A stretch of DNA of 64,000 nt, from sequence record MT129652.1. One strand, given 5' to 3'. Position numbers and translations under genes: made by a program. The notes under the pieces are model-generated. The model was given only the letters and a program-made list of their open reading frames with translations, made no database searches and had not been told where the DNA came from. Source of the DNA: Escherichia phage MN01. Below, one piece after another: positions 1 through 60,859 of this stretch (the stretch's first letter is position 1; each line of letters opens with the position of its first letter).

Positions 1-1992
1 AAATACAAGGTCCCACAGGTTTGGCAATTCGGTGTTCCTGGGACCAATTCTCTTATGGCTCGTTTGATGCAATTCACGGGCAAAGAAACAGTTAAACAAT
101 ATAAACGCGGTGATGCAATTGCCGAGGTATTCCTGCTCTCCGGGACTTCACACGGCCATGCTGTTCCTCTGAAAGGCGGTTTAGGTGAAAAACCTATTGA
201 TGCGATTAACCTGATTTTTACTACTGTCTGGGAAAGCATTAAACTAGGTAAACCCGATGTAGTCTTGTTCCGTTTCCCATCCAAAAAGATGAAAGGACAA
301 GAGCAAGCTGTTATTCGTATTATGGCTCGACTGATTCAGATGAAAACTGGTGGCCGTTATCGTGTTCTTCCGAATGCTTCTGGCCTTGGTAAAAAGAACG
401 CATACGTAATTATGTACAAAAAAGGTGTTGACCTGCTTTCGGTTGATGGTATGCCACCAGTCCCTGAGAAATATCAAAAAGTCGAAACTAAAGTTGGCGA
501 TGTATTCACTGATAAAGATACAGGTACACAGGTTTCCAACCAAGAAATCGCGGCCGAGATTCTGATTGATGCAGCAAACAAAAAGACTGATGCTTCTGTT
601 GCGCAGAAAACAAAAATCAGTCGCAGAGCTATCGCACAGGCCCAGTATGCACCTCGAGATGAAGTTCCCGAAGGTTGGGATGAAATTGATGCAGAAGCTG
701 CTAAATTTAGCAAACCGGTAACTGCTGAACCAATAAAGAATTATAAAGAATTACAAACTATTATTAAACCATCGGATGCTAATGCGATGTTCCGTATGAA
801 AGCAGCAGATTATGCTATGCGTTCTAACGGGGTGTGGAAAGAAGAAATTCGTATTGAAGATACTGACCCTATTTTTAATCGCATGCACCGTGAACTTAAA
901 CGTGCTCCGGTTGGCAGTATGAAGCAGATGCAGATTTTTGCTGAGTCTTGTGCTGAGGTTCTTAATCTACGTAAAGCCACATTTATCGAAAAACAAATGG
1001 CTTCTGCTCCACCAAATCTAAATGCAGCCGAATATGCAGCAGAGCTTTGGGAAAAAGAATATACTGCGGGAATTCGTGCGGCAGTTAATGATTTTGCAGA
1101 CGACTCCACCGAAAGTATCTTGAATTTCGTTAGTAGCTACAATGAAGCAGCCCGTTTTACCGTAAGTCAAAAAGGAACAATCATGGGCTATTGTGGCGTT
1201 AACTATATTGACATCAACAATTATTTGATGGGTAATTATTACGAGGAAGAAGCTGAATTCCTTAATAGCGCTAAAGATGTTGCACATAAAATAAAAGTGA
1301 TGGACTCGGCATTTGAGGTTGGTCAAAAACTACCTCCAGATATTACTCTATGGCGTGGTCAATATCTAAACGTTCCTACGTTTAATAAAATTAAGCAGTC
1401 GAAGTTATTTTATTTCCGTAACTATGTATCAACATCCCTTAAACCGATTATCTTTGGCGGTTGGGTTGCAAACGTTGCTATGGCTGCAGTTCATCAGGAC
1501 TATCGCGATGGAACCACTTTCCAGGGTGACGAGGAAATTGTGCTTCCTAATATTCCTGGGGCAAATCCTGATAATGCAATGATGCATGTCGGTTGGAAAA
1601 TCTCTGGAGCTGATTTAATTAACGTCATTCTTCCTGGTCAATTATCTAACAACACATCCGAGCAGGAAGTTATTCTTCCTCGTGGGACTGTAGTTAAGAT
1701 TACCAAGATTACCGATGCATCGTATAAAGGAAACGCAAACGTCAAACTGTTGGAAGCTGATATTCAAACTACCGAAATGCTGGCTGAAAATGCAGTTATC
1801 TATGATGGTGATGTGTTGATGGAAACTGGTGAGCTTGTCGTTTATCAGGGCGAGGAACCAGAAGAGCCAGTAGAATCTGTTGACTTTGCATCGTTTGCAT
1901 CCTCTGGGGTAACGAAGAAAGTCAATCAAGGTCTTGGTATTCTTGCTAGTTGTATTAATTTGGAAGCTATTCCTCCTAAATTCCTTTCGTAG
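1..1992 (+). CDS. alt: Alt-like ADP-ribosyltransferase (head-packaged), 5' partial: frame is open to the window start
   Basis: Strong resemblance to T4 Alt central and C-terminal regions as I recall them (GGRY, FYFRNFVSTSL, VILPRG, ITDASY, VIYDGD motifs); expected position next to gene 54; no stop between position 1 and the ATG at 55. Confidence 0.8.
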   Translation, partial: KYKVPQVWQFGVPGTNSLMARLMQFTGKETVKQYKRGDAIAEVFLLSGTSHGHAVPLKGGLGEKPIDAINLIFTTVWESIKLGKPDVVLFRFPSKKMKGQEQAVIRIMARLIQMKTGGRYRVLPNASGLGKKNAYVIMYKKGVDLLSVDGMPPVPEKYQKVETKVGDVFTDKDTGTQVSNQEIAAEILIDAANKKTDASVAQKTKISRRAIAQAQYAPRDEVPEGWDEIDAEAAKFSKPVTAEPIKNYKELQTIIKPSDANAMFRMKAADYAMRSNGVWKEEIRIEDTDPIFNRMHRELKRAPVGSMKQMQIFAESCAEVLNLRKATFIEKQMASAPPNLNAAEYAAELWEKEYTAGIRAAVNDFADDSTESILNFVSSYNEAARFTVSQKGTIMGYCGVNYIDINNYLMGNYYEEEAEFLNSAKDVAHKIKVMDSAFEVGQKLPPDITLWRGQYLNVPTFNKIKQSKLFYFRNYVSTSLKPIIFGGWVANVAMAAVHQDYRDGTTFQGDEEIVLPNIPGANPDNAMMHVGWKISGADLINVILPGQLSNNTSEQEVILPRGTVVKITKITDASYKGNANVKLLEADIQTTEMLAENAVIYDGDVLMETGELVVYQGEEPEEPVESVDFASFASSGVTKKVNQGLGILASCINLEAIPPKFLS

Positions 1993-2054
1993 GGTTTACA
2001 AGCACAAGGAAGTGCGATACAATGTTCATATCAATTGTACATGAGGAAAACAAA

Positions 2055-2345
2055 ATGAAATCATCTTTTCGCTTTAATGGTCAGGAACTGGTAGTTGAGA
2101 ATGTTATCCCGGCTTCAGAAGAGTTTGACAGCGCGGTGGGTAATGAACTGCGCCGCGTGTTTGGTGAAGATAAGAAGTTTGACCTTCGCCCTGTTGAAAA
2201 CTTTGTAAATTCTGAACAAACAGAAAATATTTTTAATGGTGTAGTAACTGGACAACTTGAATCTGAAGCACCAATTGCAATTACAGTCTTTGTTAAGAAA
2301 GAAGCTGTAATGACTGCAGCAGGTTTCATTTCATTCCGCAAATAA
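2055..2345 (+). CDS. small hypothetical protein, alt-adjacent
   Basis: ORF with ATG at 2055 preceded by an A-rich RBS-like stretch; followed by a strong hairpin. Confidence 0.45.
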   Translation: MKSSFRFNGQELVVENVIPASEEFDSAVGNELRRVFGEDKKFDLRPVENFVNSEQTENIFNGVVTGQLESEAPIAITVFVKKEAVMTAAGFISFRK

Positions 2346-2374
2346 AAAAGGGACCTTCGGGTCCCTTTCTTTTT
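2344..2374. terminator. bidirectional rho-independent terminator between convergent genes
   Basis: GGGACC-TTCG-GGTCCC hairpin flanked by A-run upstream and T-run downstream. Confidence 0.65.
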
Positions 2375-3332
2375 ATAATATACGTTGACTTCCACTAGAG
2401 ACCGTTCTCCCAGAACCAGTGAACGTATTGTACAGACTTGTTAATCCAGATTGAGCACCAGACAAGCGACTCAATTTGGCAACTTCTGCGTTCAAGTTGT
2501 TATCTGAACTAATACCAGATACACCCTTAATAACCTTATCTTCCAACCATTCCAGTGCAGCAGCTCTTCCCACTGCTCCCGTTGACATAACGCGATAAGC
2601 AAAAGTTACATCAAATGTAGCTATCTGATTATCCCCTTCATAACTCAATTCAGGCGCTGATACACTTACAGGAACACAACCAGTTAGCATAACAACGGTA
2701 TGCGGCAATCCATTACGTGAGTGAAGGTTAACCTGAATATCAGCTTCAACGTCTTCAGGCAAGGCCCTTAGCTGGGTAACTGGGTCTTGCACAGAGTTAA
2801 CCCAATCGTTAAATGCTCTGTAGTTTCCTGCCTCTGAATCCATTCTAAAGCTCAATACCAATGGAGAATATTCTCTTCCTGTTATCTTGATATTTGGTGC
2901 GTTATGGTTGAGGTCCATTTCGTAGTTCAATGTGTTATCCGGAAGCTTAACAGAATGAACTAATAGACCAGCCGTTGGATATGCCATATTAAAGAAATCA
3001 AGCAGGTAAGTACCAACCTCGAATTCCCCTAATAATGATTGCACAACACGGTTACTCATTGCGCCGATAAGATATTTGCTTATCCCTGATTTGCGAATAA
3101 GCTTTTGTGTTCCGGCAGTAACAAGAGTTGTTATCCCCTGAGTTAAGTCGCCTTGTGTTAAACCGAACCAATCTGAGTTAACAGGAAGGTTGCTGAATAA
3201 TGCGCCACCAAACTGGTCCAGAAGATTCTGAGATTTGGAGGAAGGAGTGGTCGCGAAGACCACACTAAAAAGGTTATTCCTTTGTAAGTCGATATTAATC
3301 GCCTGCGTTTGGAATTCTTGTAAAGTAAACAT
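2373..3332 (-). CDS. 54: baseplate tail tube initiator gp54
   Basis: 319 aa; close match to T4 gp54 as recalled; synteny 54-48-29. Confidence 0.9.
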   Translation of the reverse strand: MFTLQEFQTQAINIDLQRNNLFSVVFATTPSSKSQNLLDQFGGALFSNLPVNSDWFGLTQGDLTQGITTLVTAGTQKLIRKSGISKYLIGAMSNRVVQSLLGEFEVGTYLLDFFNMAYPTAGLLVHSVKLPDNTLNYEMDLNHNAPNIKITGREYSPLVLSFRMDSEAGNYRAFNDWVNSVQDPVTQLRALPEDVEADIQVNLHSRNGLPHTVVMLTGCVPVSVSAPELSYEGDNQIATFDVTFAYRVMSTGAVGRAAALEWLEDKVIKGVSGISSDNNLNAEVAKLSRLSGAQSGLTSLYNTFTGSGRTVSSGSQRIL

Positions 3333-4426
3333 TAGAAACCCTCCGCATATAACGAGCCACGGTTAAGCGTAATGATTTCACGGAAAGTGATTTCAAGTAC
3401 AAAAGTCGATGGCAGGTTAGGAGCAATAGCTAATCCGCCGAAATGACCATCAGGAGATTTATCAAATCTTATGCTCTGAATCTGACATGGCCCAAATAGC
3501 TCCCCACGACCATCGTACGAGCTTGTATCACCGAAGTTGCGGATATACCAGATAGTAGGGTTAGAGACCACCAGAACGTTCGTTAGGAAGCTTGTTATCT
3601 CTTCACCGAGTAACTTACCATCAAAGTTATCGATTGCTTCTTTTTTGAAGGTAGATTTATACCATGTGTCGATTTTATCTTTCAACTCGGAAGCAAACGA
3701 ACTTTTACCGGTTTCCCCATAGGAGTAATAGTTAAAAATCTCGTATATCTTCACTATCTGGATTAAGTCCTGAGCCGAACGTGGAGTCATTTCCCAGGTA
3801 TAAACTTTTGTCCTGTTATCCGGGCCAGCATACATGCTTCGTGCGGTTGTGTAAATCTGTTCACCGTGGTCGGCCATTACACCGTTTGTAACTGATTCGA
3901 GTGCGCCGAAAACTGCAGTCGATGCGATGTTACTAAGAATACCGGTGGCTGAGCCACCCCCTTTCGTAATAAGAGATTCACCAACATCATTGAATCGATG
4001 CGACACGGATTCTACATCAGACTTCGAACGAGGCAATAGGATATTTGCAACAGCGTTTGAATCAAAACTTTTACCTGTTGAACCAGCACCGGTTAATTTC
4101 GATTTAGCAAAAGATGTTAAACTTTTAACCGGGTTAAATGAAGCACCATTTGAAACTTTCTTTAATGAAGTCAATTGGCTTGACCTGTCTGAGCGTAATT
4201 CCGGAGATGTTCTTGAACTGAAATTGTATGCCGTGAATAACAGACCATTTTTATAAAGGTCATTAACTCGCATATCATCTGAAGAATCATTACCGGAAGC
4301 TCGTTCTGCTGGATATTGCGCCACAATAGTAGCTTGAGTCTGGGCAGCTTTTGACTGCCCAGCGGAGGTCTTAGAACCTCCGTTAAATAAACCCGCAATA
4401 TCAATATCGAGTTCTTTTACTTTCAT
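3332..4426 (-). CDS. 48: baseplate tail tube cap gp48
   Basis: 364 aa, same length as T4 gp48; synteny. Confidence 0.85.
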   Translation of the reverse strand: MKVKELDIDIAGLFNGGSKTSAGQSKAAQTQATIVAQYPAERASGNDSSDDMRVNDLYKNGLLFTAYNFSSRTSPELRSDRSSQLTSLKKVSNGASFNPVKSLTSFAKSKLTGAGSTGKSFDSNAVANILLPRSKSDVESVSHRFNDVGESLITKGGGSATGILSNIASTAVFGALESVTNGVMADHGEQIYTTARSMYAGPDNRTKVYTWEMTPRSAQDLIQIVKIYEIFNYYSYGETGKSSFASELKDKIDTWYKSTFKKEAIDNFDGKLLGEEITSFLTNVLVVSNPTIWYIRNFGDTSSYDGRGELFGPCQIQSIRFDKSPDGHFGGLAIAPNLPSTFVLEITFREIITLNRGSLYAEGF

Positions 4427-4434
4427 GTTATTCC

Positions 4435-6180
4435 TTAGTTAATTCTCGTGGCCTGTCTCATGCCAGGGGCAGGGGTTGAACTTTGGGGAGGCATATTGTA
4501 TTGCGTCCTGGAAGTCTTCTGAATATTATTGACCGTATTAATTTGGGCCTGAGCTGGTGCATCCTTGTATTTATTTTCTTTGGCCTTCATGCCTTCGTCT
4601 ACCTTTGCAGCTTGTTGTGCCTCCGGAGAAGTCTTAACATCCGGCGGTTTAACTTTCGGTTCGTCTTTGAACTTCTCAAGAGACTTATCAAGTTTTTCCA
4701 ACAGGGCGCGCATATTCAGGTCTTTCGGAGCTCCACCTTTTGCCATAGCAGGGTCAGCTAATTGTTTTTCAATTTTAGCTCTCATTTCCAGAGCATTCTT
4801 TTTATCGGTCGCATCTGGCTTCATTAGGTTGTCGGCAGTTTGGGTCAAACGAATAATATCAGCCTGTGCTTTGTCACGCTTCTTGAAATAGTCCAGACGT
4901 TCTTCTTCCGGAAGGTCTCTGAAGCTTGTGTCAATACCACCCGCGCGAAGCTGGTCAGCTTGTTCCTTGGTAAGGTTACCATATTTTTCGGCTTGATTAA
5001 TTAGTTCAGGCTTATCCTTATACTTCTTATTCATCTTCTCCGCAGCTTCCATTGCTTCGGCCGAACGTTTGTCATGATATTTTGCTATCTTGGTTTGGTC
5101 TTCATCATCCAGAGTTGCCCCTGTATTTTGCTGATAAGACATCAAAGCCGAGGCTTCCACATTATCCGCCAGGTCACCCATCCCAGGGATTTTGCTTAAG
5201 ATAGCCGAAATCAGTTTCGAAATACCAAGCATAAGAAGTTGAGCCATGTTCTTCGTTAAGTTAACCATCCCACGGATAATAGCTTCAGCTAATCCTAACC
5301 AGTTCCTTTCACTAAACATCGCTTCGGCATTCTTAGCCCAAGTCATTAGTCCTTCGAGTAACGGCCCCCATTCTTTGAACTTGTCATTAAATTCGGCCCA
5401 GCCTTTTTCGAATTGCTTCATGAAATATTGGAAGTAAACTCGTATTGCATCGATACCGAATACCAACAGCAATAATCCACCAATAAGCTTGGCTGCTTCG
5501 GCTGCTGCCGTAATTGTATATTTGAACAACATCCCGGAGATTCGGTCAGCTACAGAAATCGATGCCTTAAATCCTTTTTCGGTTATCTTCGAAAGGGTGT
5601 CAAGCTTATCGCCAAGTGACCAGGTATTAGTCTCTTTGCCTTCTGCATCGTTTTTTGGTTGTTCTGGTTCCGGAATGAAGTCAGCGTCGGGCTTTTGTTC
5701 TTCTGGCGGTATAAGCGCTGGAACGCTCGCTGTGGGCTTATTCTCTTCAGGCTCTGGTAGTGCATCCTCCACAGGCTTAAGGCTTTCAGAACCAGCCACA
5801 GGAGACGTGACACCTAGTTTACCGCTTATCATTGCGCTGAGTTTGTCGAGTTTATCCGAGAGAATATCCGTGAGGTTTTTAATCCCTTGTTGAGTCTTCT
5901 CGGTGGCTTCGGCCGTCAGTTCGACACCAGCACTGATATCCTGGAGGACTCCATTGTTTGTCTGGATATTCTCAATAATCTGATTACCCTTATCCTCAAT
6001 AGCTTCCGACACAAGTTCGGTTGCGGCCTGAGTATTTGTAAGAGTTGTATTCAGATTTGATAATTCATCATTCTGTTCAGCAGAGAGGGCTTCCGCCCTC
6101 CTTTGTGGTGCTAATTCTTCAATAAGCTTTTTATTCGGTCCACCGCGTCTGAAGCTCGTTTGTTCGGAGTTCTTATTCAT
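4435..6180 (-). CDS. 29: baseplate hub / tail length determining protein gp29
   Basis: 581 aa (T4 gp29 about 590 aa); synteny between 48 and 28. Confidence 0.8.
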   Translation of the reverse strand: MNKNSEQTSFRRGGPNKKLIEELAPQRRAEALSAEQNDELSNLNTTLTNTQAATELVSEAIEDKGNQIIENIQTNNGVLQDISAGVELTAEATEKTQQGIKNLTDILSDKLDKLSAMISGKLGVTSPVAGSESLKPVEDALPEPEENKPTASVPALIPPEEQKPDADFIPEPEQPKNDAEGKETNTWSLGDKLDTLSKITEKGFKASISVADRISGMLFKYTITAAAEAAKLIGGLLLLVFGIDAIRVYFQYFMKQFEKGWAEFNDKFKEWGPLLEGLMTWAKNAEAMFSERNWLGLAEAIIRGMVNLTKNMAQLLMLGISKLISAILSKIPGMGDLADNVEASALMSYQQNTGATLDDEDQTKIAKYHDKRSAEAMEAAEKMNKKYKDKPELINQAEKYGNLTKEQADQLRAGGIDTSFRDLPEEERLDYFKKRDKAQADIIRLTQTADNLMKPDATDKKNALEMRAKIEKQLADPAMAKGGAPKDLNMRALLEKLDKSLEKFKDEPKVKPPDVKTSPEAQQAAKVDEGMKAKENKYKDAPAQAQINTVNNIQKTSRTQYNMPPQSSTPAPGMRQATRIN

Positions 6181-19185: not shown

Positions 19186-20458
19186 CCAATGGCGGAAGTT
19201 TAACACCAAGATAAGAACTCAATTGGCTTTGGTTAGCCATCTTATCCATATCAGCACCGTCAATAATGCGAGCTTCTTTATCGTCTTTAGCAACGGTGTA
19301 AGGGTTCGCTGTCAATGCATAACGAGCTAACAGTGCAACCGTAGGCTGTAAGCTTTCAGGGTCAACAATAACCTTGAATTCCCCGACCGAGGTATCACCC
19401 TCATCATCAACTTCGCTAAGCCCTTCCGTATAAGGCGCATAATACAAAGATGCGACCGTCTGACCTTCACCCATATCAGCATTTACACCGACAATAACAT
19501 AATCACATGGACTATTCATATCAGCGTAAAGAGGTAAACCGTTCTTCAGAACGCCATAGGCCAATTCATCCTGGTCTTCCTTTTTCTCAACCCAGCCAGA
19601 AGCGGCTAAAATAGCTGCACAACGAGAAGAAGCGACTGCATATGTACCAGCAAATGAAGTCTGACGTTGAACTGCAGAATTCATTTCACACATATAATAA
19701 TACAGGGTTCGTGCGCGGTCCTGGGCGTTATCATATTTCAGGTCAGTAAGATTCAATACACCTTTTTCAGAAACACCTTGCACCTTGAAACGGGAACTGA
19801 CAGTAATAAGGGATTGCAGTACATCCTTATTAATTTCCTCTGCCATTTGAATACCGAGAATATTATCGATGAAATCCGTTGCATCGAAACCGTTTGCTTC
19901 CAGGTCTTGTGCAAGCTCGACAGTTAAAGAAGTTTTCAGTTTTCTGGATTTGACTTCGGTCTGCCATTTATCGATACGGAAACCAGCTTCAGCAATTTCA
20001 GGATGTCCTTTTTCAAATTTATCCGTGAAAGCCGCATCTGACATCATTCTTATATGACCAGCAGCAACGGCTTCAGAAATAACTTCACCCAAATCAGTTT
20101 CGAGAGTCCCGGCGAATGGTGATGCTTCCAGAACTTTGAACACAACACTTTCAAACTGGAACATATCGCCGACTGCATAAGCTTCGTCTTTGTTTGTAAA
20201 TTCTGGAATATTCTTACGCTCGAACATACCAATCTGACCTGCAAATGTTGCCCCGCCGAGATAAGTCATTTTATCATCTGGGTTCAGAACACGAACACCA
20301 TACAGCGCTGCAACAGGCTGGGTAGTTTTCTGTTCAGCCACGAGTGCTTTAAAAATTCGTTTATTCGTGGCTTGGGTATAAGAAAGCAAATTAGGACGGG
20401 CGACCTGGTTGGCCGCCGTTAATGTTGATTCGTGAATTAGTGCGTTAATCTTTTGCAT
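19175..20458 (-). CDS. 24: head vertex protein gp24 (copy A)
   Basis: 427 aa, same length as T4 gp24; gp23-like fold signature shared with the adjacent paralog. Confidence 0.8.
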   Translation of the reverse strand: MQKINALIHESTLTAANQVARPNLLSYTQATNKRIFKALVAEQKTTQPVAALYGVRVLNPDDKMTYLGGATFAGQIGMFERKNIPEFTNKDEAYAVGDMFQFESVVFKVLEASPFAGTLETDLGEVISEAVAAGHIRMMSDAAFTDKFEKGHPEIAEAGFRIDKWQTEVKSRKLKTSLTVELAQDLEANGFDATDFIDNILGIQMAEEINKDVLQSLITVSSRFKVQGVSEKGVLNLTDLKYDNAQDRARTLYYYMCEMNSAVQRQTSFAGTYAVASSRCAAILAASGWVEKKEDQDELAYGVLKNGLPLYADMNSPCDYVIVGVNADMGEGQTVASLYYAPYTEGLSEVDDEGDTSVGEFKVIVDPESLQPTVALLARYALTANPYTVAKDDKEARIIDGADMDKMANQSQLSSYLGVKLPPLEKE

Positions 20459-21739
20459 TTACGCCTCATAAATGATTGGCGGAAGTTTAACACCGAGCAG
20501 ATAAGACATATTGCTCTGACCGGCCATTAAATCCATATTGGTTGCATCGATAATACGAGCTTCTTTATCGTCTTTGGCAACGGTGTACGGGTTAGCTGAA
20601 AGTGCGTAACGAACCATCAGAGATATAGATGGCTGCAAGCTGTCTGGGTCCACAATGACCTTAAACGCGCCGACGTGCTCTTCATCATCCAAGTCCAGGC
20701 CTTCGGTATAAGGAGCATAGAAAATTGAGCCTACGACTTCGTTCCCGCCGTAATTTTCTTTAACACCAACGGTTACATAATCCAATGGACTGTTAACATC
20801 ACAGAATACAGGGAGGCCGTTAATCAAATAACCGTACGCTGTTTCGGGGAGCCATTGCTCATCTTCTGGTCTGTGTTTCAACCAACCAGAACCGGCCAAC
20901 ATAGCAGCAACACGGCTAGAGGCAACAACAAAGGTACCGGAATAAGATGTAGTTTTCTGAATTTCGGAGTTCATTTCGCAAACCAGTTCGTACAGTTTAC
21001 GTGCACCTTCCGGGGCTGCATCATATGTTAAATCGATGGTGCCATTGTCGGAAACGCCAGTTACTTTATAACGCTTGGAAACGGTAATAAGAGACTGAAG
21101 AACATCTTTGTTAATTTCATCTGCCATAATAGTGGCAAGCAGGTCTTCCAAGAAAGCAGGAGCGTTAAAACCATTTGCTTCCATATCCTGAGCAAGTTCA
21201 ACAGTTAATGCAGTTTTCAATTTACGTGTTTTAACCGGAGCATTCCATTTGTTAACCTGGAATACAGCATTGCTAATTTCAACATCACCAGCTTCGAATT
21301 TCTCGGTGTGTGCCGCATCAGGAACAAGGCGAATGGTCGATGCAATAAGACCTTCTTGCAGAACATCAGATAACACGGTTTCTGTGGTCGATGCAAATGG
21401 ATTATCAACCAGGGCTTTGTAAACGATATTTTGGTATTTTACATATTCGCCTTTAGCCACGGGCTGAGTGGCTGTAGCTAATTCTGGAATAGTTGTACGG
21501 TCTTTAGAACCGACTTCACCTCCATAAGTAGCGCCAGTCTGGAAACTGAATTCATTATCAGGAGTAAGATATTTAACACCGTACAGTGCAGCAACAGGCT
21601 GGGTAGTACGTTGTTCAGCGATGATATCGCGGTAAATCAATTTAGTCGTAGCGCGGGTCAAAGCAACAAGATTCGGGCGGCCCAAGGAGTTGCTGGTAGT
21701 AATAGTTGACTCGCGCAGTAATTTGTTAATCTTTGCCAT
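20459..21739 (-). CDS. 24: head vertex protein gp24 paralog (copy B)
   Basis: 426 aa; clearly alignable with copy A along its full length; stop abuts copy A start (TAAATG). Confidence 0.8.
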   Translation of the reverse strand: MAKINKLLRESTITTSNSLGRPNLVALTRATTKLIYRDIIAEQRTTQPVAALYGVKYLTPDNEFSFQTGATYGGEVGSKDRTTIPELATATQPVAKGEYVKYQNIVYKALVDNPFASTTETVLSDVLQEGLIASTIRLVPDAAHTEKFEAGDVEISNAVFQVNKWNAPVKTRKLKTALTVELAQDMEANGFNAPAFLEDLLATIMADEINKDVLQSLITVSKRYKVTGVSDNGTIDLTYDAAPEGARKLYELVCEMNSEIQKTTSYSGTFVVASSRVAAMLAGSGWLKHRPEDEQWLPETAYGYLINGLPVFCDVNSPLDYVTVGVKENYGGNEVVGSIFYAPYTEGLDLDDEEHVGAFKVIVDPDSLQPSISLMVRYALSANPYTVAKDDKEARIIDATNMDLMAGQSNMSYLLGVKLPPIIYEA

Positions 21740-24616: not shown

Positions 24617-25251
24617 AACGTCTTTAAAGCCTCTGCGAGAGCCATAAAGGCGTCATCGGCACTGGTATCGGCAACTGCCGTTTGTGATTCTGTAATCTGC
24701 TTTGGTTTGACCCAAGCGTCCGGAGCACTTGGCCCCCATACTGCATCTACTCCAACCGTCAATTTAAAACCTTCATTAACGATGCTATAACCTTTTGCTG
24801 ATTTAGTCAAGGAACCAAGTCCACGACTAGATACACCAGGAATCCAACCCGCTCTTATATTCGCAGCAAGTTTATCACCTGGGCCATGGTCGCCTTCGAT
24901 AATACGCGCGCGGCCATATACATCATTACCTTTCCACCACATTTCCTCGATAATAATTGCCGCCTGCATAGGGTCAACGTTTGCACGAGGTGGATGGTTT
25001 AATTCTCCAAGAGACTGCTTGGTTTCAACCTGTTCGGCGATATAGTCCGCAACGGCTTTTTCCAAAATATGTTTAGGATAAAGTCGTTTATTACGGTTAA
25101 CAACTTCAGCTTGTAGGAAAATACCTTCAATATAAAGTCCTGGCTTTAAACCGCTGCTGGAACCATCATGAGATTCCAACATCGGTACACCATCTTTAAT
25201 TTCGCCCGGTTGACCCCAGTGTTCGATTAGTAACTCTGGTTTCTGTTCCAT
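24613..25251 (-). CDS. 21: prohead core protease gp21
   Basis: 212 aa, same as T4 gp21; synteny. Confidence 0.85.
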   Translation of the reverse strand: MEQKPELLIEHWGQPGEIKDGVPMLESHDGSSSGLKPGLYIEGIFLQAEVVNRNKRLYPKHILEKAVADYIAEQVETKQSLGELNHPPRANVDPMQAAIIIEEMWWKGNDVYGRARIIEGDHGPGDKLAANIRAGWIPGVSSRGLGSLTKSAKGYSIVNEGFKLTVGVDAVWGPSAPDAWVKPKQITESQTAVADTSADDAFMALAEALKTL

Positions 25252-53853: not shown

Positions 53854-54526
53854 AATTAATTGCGATTGTGGGTAAAAAACGCAGTGGTAAAGATACGACT
53901 GCTGATTATGTTATTAGTCAAAATGGAACAAAGTGGCAGCTTGCAGGTCCGATTAAAGAAGCGCTTTATAAAGCGTGGATTCGTCAAGACCTGCCACACA
54001 ATTTGACCCTGGAAAATTTTGATGGACAAGGTTACGACCGTGAAAAAACCTTGATAATGAACAACACCGAAGCTTATATTCTTCTGGTTGATGCTCTTGA
54101 ATGGTTGAAACAACAATACAATCTTGACCTTCCTAATCCAGATATGGTTCGTAAAATCATTGAATTTCACACACTAAATAATGTTGAGCCCTGGACAGTT
54201 AGACGTTTCATGCAGACCCTTGGAACTGACATCGTTTGTACAGAGTTCGACAGCATGTTTTGGATTAAAACTTTTGCGTGCGATTATCTTGACAACCTCT
54301 ATTCTGGATATAAATATTACGTTGTCCCAGATGTTCGCCAAAAGAACGAACTTGATTCGCTTCGGGCGATGGGTGCTACAATAATCTTTGTAGAACGCGA
54401 TGAAGCAAATCATTCTACTGATACACACATTACGGAAGCTGGACTTCCACCACTAGCTAGTGACATTGTTATTAAAAACGATGGCACACTCGAAGAACTT
54501 TTTGATAAAATTAATAAGGTAATATA

Positions 54527-54527: not shown

Positions 54528-55217
<690 letters not shown>

Positions 55218-55218
<1 letters not shown>

Positions 55219-55257
55219 TGTACAAATGAGTGTAGGTGCAGTATTATGTTCCTACAC
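55218..55257 (+). promoter_or_regulatory. early promoter with stem-loop (PeSL-like) upstream of the IP array
   Basis: GTGTAC -35, 18 nt spacer, TATTAT -10 embedded in GTGTAGG...CCTACAC inverted repeat. Confidence 0.55.
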
Positions 55258-55282
55258 CAATGAATGAACAAACGGAGTTAAA

Positions 55283-55615
55283 ATGAACCTCAAGACTTAT
55301 AACGAGTTTTTAGCTGAATCCGCCATCAATGAGACCAAATCAATTGATGATAGTGAAGGCTCTCTGAAATTTGGTTTAACCAAAAATGCAGATGGTGTTT
55401 TCTTTCAGATTGGTAATGAACGTTTTCAAACGTCCAAATATTCCAAAGCTGCAGTTGAAGCTGTCCTGAAATCTGGTGGCAAGTGGAAAGGCAAAGAAGG
55501 TACTAAAGAAATTGGTATCGCTGTTGACGGCGGTATGGCTTATTTTAAAATTGGCGATGAACAATTTATTATGTCTGCTCGCGGACGTAAAGAACTGGCA
55601 AAACTTTATAAATAA
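55283..55615 (+). CDS. internal-protein-like, capsid-targeting-sequence-bearing protein 1
   Basis: N-terminus MNLKTYNEFLAE|S resembles the T4 IP capsid targeting sequence with an L-x-E gp21-type cleavage site. Confidence 0.65.
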   Translation: MNLKTYNEFLAESAINETKSIDDSEGSLKFGLTKNADGVFFQIGNERFQTSKYSKAAVEAVLKSGGKWKGKEGTKEIGIAVDGGMAYFKIGDEQFIMSARGRKELAKLYK

Positions 55616-55623
55616 GGTTTCTT

Positions 55624-55896
55624 ATGAAAACTTTCAATGAATTTTTCAACGAGTCACAACTGAATGAAGAAGTAAAAATTAGTAAAGCAGTCAAAGCTAT
55701 GATTGACAATATCAATCACCTGTATAGCATTGACTTAACTGACCATATAACAATTGGTAACAAACGCAACTTTTTCGCGTTTGACATTTCAGAACTTGAC
55801 CAGAACCAAATTAATAACATTGAGCGTTTTGCCAATGACAAGGGTCTTCGCCATGAGACGGCTGGTTATAAAAAATATGCAATTTATCTAAAATAG
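55624..55896 (+). CDS. internal-protein-like, capsid-targeting-sequence-bearing protein 2
   Basis: N-terminus MKTFNEFFNE|S. Confidence 0.65.
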   Translation: MKTFNEFFNESQLNEEVKISKAVKAMIDNINHLYSIDLTDHITIGNKRNFFAFDISELDQNQINNIERFANDKGLRHETAGYKKYAIYLK

Positions 55897-55904
55897 GATT
55901 TCAA

Positions 55905-56147
55905 ATGAAAACTTATCAAACATTTATAACAGAATCTTCCCATGGCATGGAAGTTAAACTTGGTCAAGCCCTTGCTGAAGCAGAGCGCCTGTTTGCACGT
56001 ATCAAAGAACTTGCTGATTCAGTAGATGCATCATCTTTTAAAGGCGACCAGGGTAAAGTTAAAGCTCTCCTCGCTCTTTGTTCAGACGCCGGTGAAATTG
56101 CTAAGAACGGCACCAAGATGAAAAAACGTCTGGAAGACTTAAAATAA
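55905..56147 (+). CDS. internal-protein-like, capsid-targeting-sequence-bearing protein 3
   Basis: N-terminus MKTYQTFITE|S. Confidence 0.65.
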   Translation: MKTYQTFITESSHGMEVKLGQALAEAERLFARIKELADSVDASSFKGDQGKVKALLALCSDAGEIAKNGTKMKKRLEDLK

Positions 56148-56148
56148 A

Positions 56149-56184
56149 GTATACGCGATGGGATAACTGCAGTATAATTATCCC
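56149..56184 (+). promoter_or_regulatory. early promoter with stem-loop (PeSL-like)
   Basis: GTATAC -35, 18 nt spacer, TATAAT at 56173-56178 inside GGGATAA...TTATCCC inverted repeat; leader TCAACTACTGGAGG. Confidence 0.6.
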
Positions 56185-56203
56185 ATCAACTACTGGAGGC
56201 AAC

Positions 56204-56458
56204 ATGAAAACATATCAAGAATTTATTAACGAAGCCGCAGATGCAAAAGTTGAGTTTGCTTATGTTGGTTCCCCGCGGGGTAGTTTTTCTAATGAGGAAT
56301 TGCGCCGTTCACTAGACAACTTTATGCAGTTAAGTGCTGAAGTATCGCATGATGGTCGCTATGACATCGTTACCATTAAAGGTTCTGAAGACCTTATCAA
56401 AAAGTGGCACAAGCAGAAAGATGTTGAGATGCGTTACTATCGTATCCCTAAAAAATAA
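56204..56458 (+). CDS. internal-protein-like, capsid-targeting-sequence-bearing protein 4
   Basis: N-terminus MKTYQEFINE|A, almost identical to the T4 IPIII targeting sequence MKTYQEFIAE as recalled. Confidence 0.7.
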   Translation: MKTYQEFINEAADAKVEFAYVGSPRGSFSNEELRRSLDNFMQLSAEVSHDGRYDIVTIKGSEDLIKKWHKQKDVEMRYYRIPKK

Positions 56459-56493
56459 GTGTACTTTTAAATGGGATAGTGTATAATTATCCC
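56459..56493 (+). promoter_or_regulatory. early promoter with stem-loop (PeSL-like)
   Basis: GTGTAC -35, 17 nt spacer, TATAAT at 56482-56487 inside GGGATAG...TTATCCC; near-duplicate of the cassette at 56149. Confidence 0.6.
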
Positions 56494-56515
56494 GTCAACT
56501 ACTGAGGGTCAAAAA

Positions 56516-56737
56516 ATGAAAACGTATCAAGAATTTATTAACGAAGCTAAAATGCATGACGAATTGCCGATTCAATCTAAAACTTTTGATGGTACACTGA
56601 AGGATTTTAAAAAGTTACCAAATGATAAATTGGCAAAACTTACAGGTTCTGTATCTGAAACAGGTGGTAAGGTTACTTTCTCTGCCCGTGGTATTGTCAA
56701 CCTTAAAAAACTTTTGAAAGCCGTTGGTGCTGAATAA
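56516..56737 (+). CDS. internal-protein-like, capsid-targeting-sequence-bearing protein 5
   Basis: N-terminus MKTYQEFINE|A. Confidence 0.7.
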   Translation: MKTYQEFINEAKMHDELPIQSKTFDGTLKDFKKLPNDKLAKLTGSVSETGGKVTFSARGIVNLKKLLKAVGAE

Positions 56738-56794
56738 AACAGTTACTGGTCTAGTATATCATAACCTAGACCTATCAAAAAGTGAGGAGAATAA

Positions 56795-56981
56795 AATGAA
56801 ACGCTGTGAATTAATTAGAAATGTTACTGCCCTTGTTGCTGTTACCGCTTTTGGTTTTAGCATGTTTGCTGGCTTTATGTTGAATATGCTTTCAACTTCT
56901 GAGAATATAATCTCTTTAGTAGTTGCATTTTTAATTGGTTCAATCTCTTTCGTTATGGATAAAATCTCTAAAGGTGAGTAA
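56795..56981 (+). CDS. small membrane protein (two predicted hydrophobic helices)
   Basis: ATG after GTGAGGAG RBS; hydrophobic segments. Confidence 0.45.
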
Positions 56982-58240: not shown

Positions 58241-58316
58241 GGCCCTGTAGCTCAATTGGTTAGAGCATCCGGCTCATAACTGGCAGGTTTCCGGTTCAAG
58301 TCCGGATGGGGCCACC
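58241..58316 (+). tRNA. tRNA with CAU anticodon (Ile-lysidine type or Met)
   Basis: Cloverleaf by eye: acceptor GGCCCTG/TGGGGCC, D-arm GCTC-AATTGGTTA-GAGC, T-arm TCCGG-TTCAAGT-CCGGA, anticodon loop CTCATAA; anticodon stem imperfect. Confidence 0.6.
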
Positions 58317-58393
58317 CGGGGTGTAGCTCAATTGTATAGAGCAACGGTCTTCTAAACCGTAGGTTGTGGGTTAGAATCCCACCACCCCGACCA
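58317..58393 (+). tRNA. tRNA-Arg (UCU)
   Basis: Cloverleaf by eye: acceptor CGGGGTG/CACCCCG, anticodon arm ACGGT-CTTCTAA-ACCGT, T-arm GTGGG-TTAGAAT-CCCAC, encoded CCA. Confidence 0.8.
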
Positions 58394-60480: not shown

Positions 60481-60491
60481 TTGAGAAAAGT

Positions 60492-60540
60492 GTTTTACTT
60501 CCAGGTGGGATAATGTATAATTATCCCATACTGAGTTACC
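60492..60540 (+). promoter_or_regulatory. early promoter with stem-loop (PeSL-like)
   Basis: GTTTTAC -35, TATAAT at 60516-60521 inside GGGATAA...TTATCCC, leader ATACTGAGTTACC. Confidence 0.6.
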
Positions 60541-60562: not shown

Positions 60563-60859
60563 ATGTTTAACGCACCGGCATGGCACGCTACCCAAGCTCA
60601 AGAAGAAAACAAAGCAATCATTTCTGCTAAAATTGAAGCTCAACTGAATGAATTGTGCGAAACTGCTTCTGAAGAAGTTGTTGCAATCATCAAACAGTAT
60701 CCTGCATCCAACTATTCCCTGGCATGCATCAAAACAGAAATGGTTAACTTGTGGCGCAAGAATAAGAAAACTTTCTTAGGTATGCAGTACCAGGCAATCG
60801 CGTCTGCGGTAGTAAACATGTATGACTTTGAAGTTTATTTCCCAACTTCTGAAAATTAA
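60563..60859 (+). CDS. hypothetical early protein
   Basis: 98 aa ORF with own promoter cassette and GGAG RBS. Confidence 0.5.
   Translation: MFNAPAWHATQAQEENKAIISAKIEAQLNELCETASEEVVAIIKQYPASNYSLACIKTEMVNLWRKNKKTFLGMQYQAIASAVVNMYDFEVYFPTSEN

Follow-up and report, generated by a model that had tools for sequence, protein, structure and literature searches.

Five predicted internal head protein genes in the ipI slot of Escherichia phage MN01

The five genes, their leaders and their slot

The stretch of Escherichia phage MN01 analysed here (sequence record MT129652.1, 64,000 nucleotides (nt), in the following called the window) contains a tandem array of small genes between gene 57B and a homolog of trna.4. 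The array consists of five plus-strand open reading frames (ORFs) at 55283-56737, each of which opens with a capsid targeting sequence (CTS) of the T4 type and then diverges. A preliminary description based on the letters alone had listed five consecutive ORFs of 110, 90, 80, 84 and 73 amino acids (aa) together with their N-termini, and these were all confirmed on the plus strand. It had placed the array at 55218-56737, which is right for the end; 57B ends at position 55218, and the first ORF starts at 55283. The family names in the following list are assignments by sequence similarity.

55283-55615, plus strand: ORF1, 110 aa, N-terminus MNLKTYNEFLAE, leader MNL-KTYNEFLAE
55624-55896, plus strand: ORF2, assigned to Ip9, 90 aa, leader MKTFNEFFNE
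55905-56147, plus strand: ORF3, assigned to Ip5, 80 aa, leader MKTYQTFITE with S as the next residue
56204-56458, plus strand: ORF4, assigned as a diverged member of the Ip6 family, 84 aa, leader MKTYQEFINE with A as the next residue
56516-56737, plus strand: ORF5, assigned to the Ip8 family, 73 aa, leader MKTYQEFINE with A as the next residue

A Shine-Dalgarno-like, purine-rich stretch lies before each of these ORFs, and no overlapping competing ORF of more than 62 aa was found across the five. ORF2 and ORF3 each begin 8 nt behind the preceding stop codon, so that ORF1, ORF2 and ORF3 look like one transcription unit.

The two T4 internal proteins (IPs) IPII and IPIII, read directly from their genes, both open with MKTYQEFIAE; the preliminary description had given this start correctly for IPIII. 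ORF4 and ORF5 are identical to it at 8 of 9 leader positions. T4 IPI opens with MKTFKEFTSTTTPVSTITE (MKTFKEFTS...ITE), and its 19-residue leader ending in I-T-E indicates that leader length is flexible and that longer leaders work. Scanned in all six frames with the loose CTS motif K[TS][FY]x[ETDQN]F[ILFVT]x[EST], the window returned five sites, every one of them the N-terminus of an array ORF, and a strict form of the motif occurred four times in the window versus not at all in 100 shuffles. Compared pairwise, the five leaders have 4-9 of 9 positions in common. Behind the leader the earlier claim of complete divergence holds, since no pair of mature parts was significantly similar in BLASTP (all E at least 0.1). 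Four of the mature parts are basic, with isoelectric points (pI) of 8.8-9.8, and that of ORF2 is neutral.

Mutational work on IPIII has assigned targeting chiefly to residues 4 and 7 and processing to residues 8 and 10, and cleavage by gp21 falls after L/I-x-E (PMC9026906). ORF3, ORF4 and ORF5 agree with all of these rules, and ORF1 does so with an offset of two residues. The targeting residues, an aromatic Y or F as residue 4 and F as residue 7, are present in ORF2 to ORF5 and stand at +2 in ORF1. A gp21-type site closes the leader as L-A-E12 in ORF1, I-T-E10 in ORF3 and I-N-E10 in both ORF4 and ORF5. The preliminary description had spoken of such a site for the leader in general, which holds for these four and fails for ORF2: there F replaces I at leader position 8, the canonical site reads F-N-E10, and the next L-x-E is L13-N-E15. 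In ORF1 the displaced site (L-A-E at 10-12, followed by S) has a second one behind it, I-N-E at 15-17; cleavage at the first would leave a mature part of about 98 aa with a pI of 9.3.

The position of the array was likewise described correctly. In T4 (NC_000866) the gene order is 1 - 57A - 57B - ipI - trna.4 - trna.3, and at the locus in the window it is gp3 - gp1 - 57A - 57B - array - trna.4 - trna.3, which places the five genes in the T4 ipI slot directly downstream of 57B. The upstream genes include gp1, the dNMP kinase (Pfam, 4e-77), and gp57A (5e-25). The slot has the following borders.

54763-55218, plus strand: 57B, a member of the Acb1 family of phosphodiesterases directed against the cyclic-oligonucleotide-based antiphage signalling system CBASS (Pfam PF23474, E 1.2e-59); left border
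56796-56981, plus strand: trna.4 homolog, 61 aa, hydrophobic and without a CTS (phrog_1692 match); right border, outside the array

In phage EAWsc9 the counterpart of 57B carries the Acb1 annotation. A known counter-defence gene thus directly adjoins an array of predicted injected proteins. The trna.4 homolog is apparently a small membrane protein and is followed by a trna.3-like gene. About 1.5 kilobases (kb) downstream of the array, at 58241-58393, lie a tRNA-Met (CAT) and a tRNA-Arg (TCT), corresponding to the tRNA region of T4.

Promoters, cassette borders and slot polymorphism

Early promoters built into a hairpin were searched for by four features: a -35 box of the T4 early type, a spacer of 16-18 nt, a -10 box within an inverted repeat, and a location in the spacer upstream of an ORF. 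Six were found in the window versus 0.57 expected from shuffles. Three of the six belong to the array, where they precede ORF1, ORF4 and ORF5, have spacers of 16-17 nt and -10 boxes starting at 55242, 56173 and 56482. The preliminary description had credited two ORFs with a stem-loop early promoter of their own and so missed one. A generic sigma-70 scan overlooked two of the three as well, their -35 boxes being of the T4 early type. The regulatory elements at the locus are as follows.

55219-55257, plus strand: candidate hairpin early promoter 1; -35-like TGTACA at 55219-55224, -10 TATTAT at 55242-55247, stem GTGTAGG/CCTACAC at 55230-55236 / 55251-55257
56150-56187, plus strand: candidate hairpin early promoter 2; -35-like TATACG at 56150-56155, -10 TATAAT at 56173-56178, stem GATGGGATAA/TTATCCCATC at 56157-56166 / 56178-56187
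56460-56493, plus strand: candidate hairpin early promoter 3; -35-like TGTACT at 56460-56465, -10 TATAAT at 56482-56487, stem GGGATA/TATCCC at 56473-56478 / 56488-56493
56748-56772, plus strand: hairpin GGTCTAGTATAT/ATAACCTAGACC around a TATCAT box before the trna.4 homolog; right cassette border
54309-54316, plus strand: T4 late-promoter motif TATAAATA within gene 1, ahead of 57A-57B and the array (motif scan)
55607-55614, plus strand: second perfect TATAAATA, over the stop of ORF1 (codons Y-K-stop), 10 nt before the ATG of ORF2

For the hairpin at 56748-56772 no -35 match was found at the right spacing. The region upstream of T4 ipI shows the same design as the array promoters, namely GTTTAC followed by a hairpin that encloses the -10 box. 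Gene 1 of T4 likewise contains the late motif, ahead of 57A-57B-ipI, and no copy lies between 57B and ipI. In the window the copy at 54309 is the only one placed to serve the whole array, and by analogy with T4 late transcription may read through from it into the array. The copy at 55607 was considered as a promoter of ORF2 and set aside; it is too close to the ATG and could have arisen by chance.

The elements of the array resemble the promoter-early-stem-loops (PeSLs) and other IP-associated elements described before (Arbiol 2010; Comeau 2014) in that a short intergenic early promoter is combined with a stem-loop, is enriched at the borders of variable genes and is repeated between cassettes. 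They differ from the PeSLs of RB49 in being of the T-even type, with a -35 box like that of T4 early promoters (TGTAC/TATAC) and AT-rich stems; T-even elements were regarded as analogous rather than homologous to the RB49 PeSLs (Arbiol 2010). Promoter 3 and the CTS codons behind it form, judged by eye, a near-repeat, about 95 base pairs (bp) long, of the 5' region of ORF4, so that the ORF4 and ORF5 cassettes share this block. From its sequence this near-repeat would be a ready substrate for cassette gain and loss. Another of the six elements in the window, located at 60516 within 60488-60540, consists of TTTACT, a 16 nt spacer, TATAAT and a stem TGGGATAAT/ATTATCCCA nearly matching those of promoters 2 and 3; the gene behind it is a 98-aa ORF without a CTS (60563-60859), and the element could recombine with those of the array.

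Since the ORF4 and ORF5 cassettes have the hairpin promoter and about 30 initial coding bases in common as a DNA repeat, recombination could maintain this repeat, and the common N-terminus might then be no targeting peptide at all, only a by-product of a tandem duplication in the recent past or of a conserved DNA block for translation initiation or recombination. The ORFs are not paralogs, however, given that their mature parts are unrelated, and ORF2 and ORF3, which lack the promoter block, retain the peptide and encode it by different codons. Furthermore, the peptide is conserved at the protein level across genera while the remainder diverges, and in T4 the identical peptide has been found experimentally to be sufficient for head targeting (PMC9026906). 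The by-product explanation has almost no likelihood left and is effectively refuted.

The slot is highly variable among related phages, as the preliminary description had expected of a hyperplastic locus. The comparison covered 30 loci, drawn from the window, two GenBank records and 28 loci of IMG/VR, in one of which no trna.4 homolog was detectable. The interval between 57B and trna.4 ranges from 268 to 1666 bp and holds 0-5 CTS ORFs in varying order. Single-linkage clustering put these ORFs into 11 clusters, with one cluster lumping unrelated families together; the families, unrelated to each other, number about a dozen. Gaprivervirus slots contain 4-5 such ORFs and those of most other genera 1-3. 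The closest genomes to the window are by sequence those of Gaprivervirus phages: DK-13 and Yersinia phage vB_YenM_P8 possess the same five-gene array with ~97% identity over the 4.5 kb tested, and in EAWsc9 ORF5 is missing and an extra cassette follows Ip9. Recombination between the repeated blocks of hairpin promoter and CTS codons would account for the way in which cassettes are gained, lost and reordered.

In some Gaprivervirus genomes a 99-aa cassette with the variant leader MQTFHEFLVEN (Q for K at residue 2) separates Ip9 from the next IP gene (EAWsc9, L002, 2606-2905; L004 6139-6438; L006 6139-6438). It does not occur in the window; with its altered CTS it may represent a further IP family. 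Database labels for this region seem unreliable (EAWsc9 1984-4611; vB_YenM_P8 3498-3683): the suspect labels are 'profilin' for the ORF1 homolog, 'homing endonuclease' for the MQTFHEFLVE ORF, 'RimM' for an ORF of the trna region and 'prohead core protein' for trna.4.

Families of the five proteins

The preliminary description could assign no family to the mature products, yet four of the five fall into families that already bear Ip names, and close relatives annotate these four as internal head proteins. PHROG families of internal head or virion proteins match ORF2 to ORF5 with E values from 1e-15 to 1e-56. ORF2 is 79% identical to Ip9 of RB15 (UniProt Q38376) and 79-87% identical across Ip9 sequences, which are labelled 'ip9' in VR25 and VR26. 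ORF3 matches phrog_3499 (2.4e-41), and its mature part is 100% identical to ip5 of VR26 ('similar to RB51 Ip5'). ORF5 is 81% identical to ip8 of VR5 and matches phrog_8765 (1.3e-20); its family comprises 107 phage records, 52 of them from Klebsiella phages. ORF4 is more isolated: it matches phrog_8111 (1.6e-15) and is 45-50% identical to Ip6/ipVI of VR20, VR25, GiZh and Tequatrovirus (T6-type) phages (E 1e-8 to 1e-10), homologs of more than 90% identity were restricted to 14 records, and only three close clusters exist among 5.8 billion proteins. Judged by these similarities ORF2 is Ip9, ORF3 is Ip5, ORF4 is a diverged Ip6 and ORF5 is Ip8.

The array therefore compares with the series Ip4 to Ip10 known from RB15, RB51, T6, VR5, VR7, VR25 and VR26, to which ORF2, ORF3 and ORF5 belong as members and ORF4 as a relative of Ip6. 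It departs from that series in the low identity of ORF4 to typical Ip6 proteins, in an Ip9 with an atypical F8 and in the nameless ORF1. With T4 IPI, IPII and IPIII it has in common the ipI slot, the CTS, the type of gp21 site, the small and mostly basic proteins and the early promoter wrapped in a hairpin. The differences are that the mature sequences are unrelated to those of T4 and that five genes instead of one occupy the slot.

IP loci, the conserved leader and the blocks of promoter and stem-loop were all described by Repoila (1994), as cited in later papers, and 'more than 30 known variants' of IP genes were counted later (Comeau 2007). The blocks have been proposed to mediate shuffling (Repoila 1994, again as cited later; Arbiol 2010; Comeau 2014), and the anti-restriction rationale is in the literature too (Bair/Rifat/Black 2007-8; Silas 2025). 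As a whole the array is already known in kind and is an ordinary instance of a locus described since 1994. What is left as new concerns ORF1, whose family merits annotation as an Ip and may have a Whirly/PUR-like fold according to a predicted model.

ORF1 belongs to a PHROG family of unknown function. None of 55 matching records gives it an Ip name, and among the matches listed the label is 'hypothetical' everywhere except for 'profilin' in EAWsc9. Relatives from Edwardsiella, Salmonella, Citrobacter, Serratia and Pectobacterium phages open with the canonical MKTY-x-EF-[LI]-x-E, and all true relatives carry MKT[YF]-x-x-F[LI]-x-E. A profile search of 1.84 billion representatives yielded only six clusters, every genuine one with the leader. 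ORF1-like domains without a CTS were absent from this exhaustive search, apart from P0034, a repeat protein of doubtful relevance. The leader remains identical at 6-8 of 9 positions even where the mature part is down to 27-38%. In Salmonella phage STP4-a, an ORF1 homolog is located between endolysin e and denV, that is in the T4 ipIII/ipII slot. Taking together the canonical CTS of the relatives, the retention of the leader and this second location, ORF1 behaves as an internal protein. Single-linkage clustering had joined ORF1 and ORF4 into one family; this was rejected as a chaining artefact, the direct comparison giving E = 0.34.

In the predicted model the mature part of ORF1 shows two ββββα repeats, (ββββα)x2, an arrangement that may be Whirly/PUR-like. 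The confidence of the model is moderate, with a predicted local distance difference test (pLDDT) score of 75 (54-64 for the other four models). A Pfam scan of all 12 members of the ORF1 family gave no support for PUR, Whirly, MRP or SsgA profiles, so that the fold assignment remains structural and tentative. With respect to the fold class of Whirly, PUR-alpha and MRP1-MRP2, the likeness lies in the model and not in any sequence-profile similarity.

A predicted model of Ip9 (pLDDT 77.6) forms a generic α-ββ-α-ββ sandwich, for which no informative structural neighbours were found. The leader appears in both AlphaFold models, ORF1 and Ip9, as a short helix followed by a linker of lower confidence, which in these models matches the expectation for an accessible protease site. 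Among phages in which the identity of the neighbouring Acb1 is no higher than 75-83%, the mature part of Ip9 retains 82-100%, an unusually strong conservation for a gene of a hyperplastic and presumed arms-race locus.

Packaging, injection and possible function

On the sequence comparisons described above, the five ORFs in the hyperplastic ipI locus very probably encode internal head proteins of a T-even phage of the Gaprivervirus type. That the proteins are directed by the CTS, processed by gp21 and injected is highly probable too, somewhat less so for ORF1 and ORF2. The preliminary description had already proposed candidates for packaging and injection, and the idea gains support from the CTS match, the slot, and the presence in the window of the core genes and the following enzyme.

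24622-25245, minus strand: gp21 prohead protease (tblastn with the T4 protein: 87.5% identical over 208 aa)

This gp21 is the enzyme expected to strip the leaders of the array. According to tblastn searches with T4 proteins the adjoining head genes include gp22, gp67 and gp68 of the core, the portal gp20 and the capsid protein gp23, and gp24 is likewise found in the window. The gp24 query gave two tandem full-length matches on the minus strand, at 21739-20471 (69% identity) and 20458-19187 (55%), so that by sequence 19187-21739 is a tandem duplication of gene 24, which encodes the capsid vertex protein.

Sequence and the parallel with T4 suggest the following course of events. The three hairpin promoters of the array would drive early transcription, with ORF1, ORF2 and ORF3 as one unit. 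Loading of the prohead requires late expression, for which the TATAAATA motif in gene 1 is invoked as the probable origin of read-through. The CTS of about ten residues would carry each protein into the scaffolding core of gp22, gp67 and gp68, as known for T4 IPIII and as suggested here by the identity of the leaders. There gp21 would cut after the L/I-x-E at the leader end and free mature proteins of 63-98 aa, mostly basic, which would remain with the packaged DNA and enter the cell with it. Inside the cell they would most likely act as inhibitors of narrow specificity against defences that attack incoming DNA, before phage expression, for which Ip1 to Ip3 set the precedent.

Several points weigh against this interpretation. 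The leader of ORF1 sits two residues in from the N-terminus. ORF2 lacks a canonical L/I-x-E, its residue 8 being F in contrast to the I of all 15 Ip9 relatives in the alignment. The mature parts are unlike IPI, IPII and IPIII in sequence comparison; the searches that the preliminary description had suggested, against these three proteins and against anti-defence families (PADLOC), returned no significant match. The five mature parts were equally without a significant sequence match in PDB sequences, Pfam, NCBIfam and PADLOC. In addition, the prototypes ip4 to ip10 gave nothing reproducible against eight GmrSD systems (PMC12373910). Gaprivervirus phages reportedly have no known genes for the synthesis of hydroxymethylcytosine (hmC), with Alc and DenB kept (2021 survey, PMC8056088). 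With the hmC pathway reported missing, the relevant host enzymes may differ, and enzymes specific for glucosyl-hmC are perhaps not the enemy. A literature search for virion proteomics of Gaprivervirus or of Ip5, Ip8 or Ip9 gave nothing usable. A 2026 paper on 5-hydroxycytosine was set aside; it does not concern this lineage.

The deviating leaders raise the question whether only some members are truly packaged, in which case ORF1 and/or ORF2, with weakened targeting or processing, would be early cytoplasmic proteins or would be packaged uncleaved. CTS residues 8 and 10 are those that govern processing, and 4 and 7 those that govern targeting (PMC9026906), and the Ip9 of the window is the sole sequence with F8 among the 16 aligned; the Ip9 proteins of VR20, VR25 and VR26 even have L at position 7. 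The MN[LI] prefix occurs, within the ORF1 family, in this lineage alone, and both ORF1 and ORF2 stand behind an early promoter. On the other hand, the spacing of Y/F4, F7 and E10 is kept in both leaders, a second L/I-x-E follows shortly after (I-N-E17 in ORF1, L-N-E15 in ORF2), and T4 IPI itself has a leader of 19 residues ending in I-T-E. The mature sequences of both proteins are also well conserved, which implies selection. Partial packaging of the array is thus quite unlikely, and packaging of all five remains the preferred reading.

What the packaged proteins do is a separate question. The mutually non-homologous T4 proteins Ip1, Ip2 and Ip3 each inhibit a different GmrSD type IV restriction enzyme, and further GmrSD variants were proposed as targets of the other Ips of the two loci (Silas 2025, PMC12373910). 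Ip1 to Ip3 thus each have a defined GmrSD target, and the array is likened to them by leader and slot. By this analogy an anti-defence role of the array proteins is somewhat favoured; type IV restriction enzymes in particular are doubtful as targets, even at the most generous estimate.

A mainly physical role would be another use for packaged basic proteins: they could neutralise charge and aid condensation or ejection of the DNA, with mature ORF1 as a nucleic-acid-binding protein. Such a generic role leaves the extreme turnover and the non-homology of the slot cassettes unexplained, and all three T4 IPs, which are basic as well, turned out to be specific nuclease inhibitors. The Whirly-like call for ORF1 is derived from one model with a pLDDT of 75 and finds no support in sequence profiles, and the same fold class includes SsgA and ErpC, which do not bind nucleic acids. 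A physical role is accordingly unlikely. Specific inhibition remains the preferred function, and ORF1 could depart from it in one respect. It is conceivable, if improbable, that ORF1 represents an unrecognised internal-protein family of the Tevenvirinae, present in both IP loci, whose injected mature form has a Whirly/PUR-like fold and binds single-stranded nucleic acid. It might then, for example, shield the entering DNA end or mask the single-stranded DNA or RNA that triggers a defence, and would act on nucleic acid where Ip1 to Ip3 act by protein-protein inhibition of a nuclease.

The biological interest of the locus lies in the time at which such proteins would act. Injected internal proteins are at work before any phage gene is expressed, which makes them first-line counter-defence tools that shape host range, and this bears on the selection and engineering of therapeutic T4-like phages. 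The array offers five candidate IPs with orphan targets in Gaprivervirus, a lineage whose DNA modification is unclear. The family of ORF1, in databases 'hypothetical' or wrongly 'profilin', deserves annotation as an internal protein.

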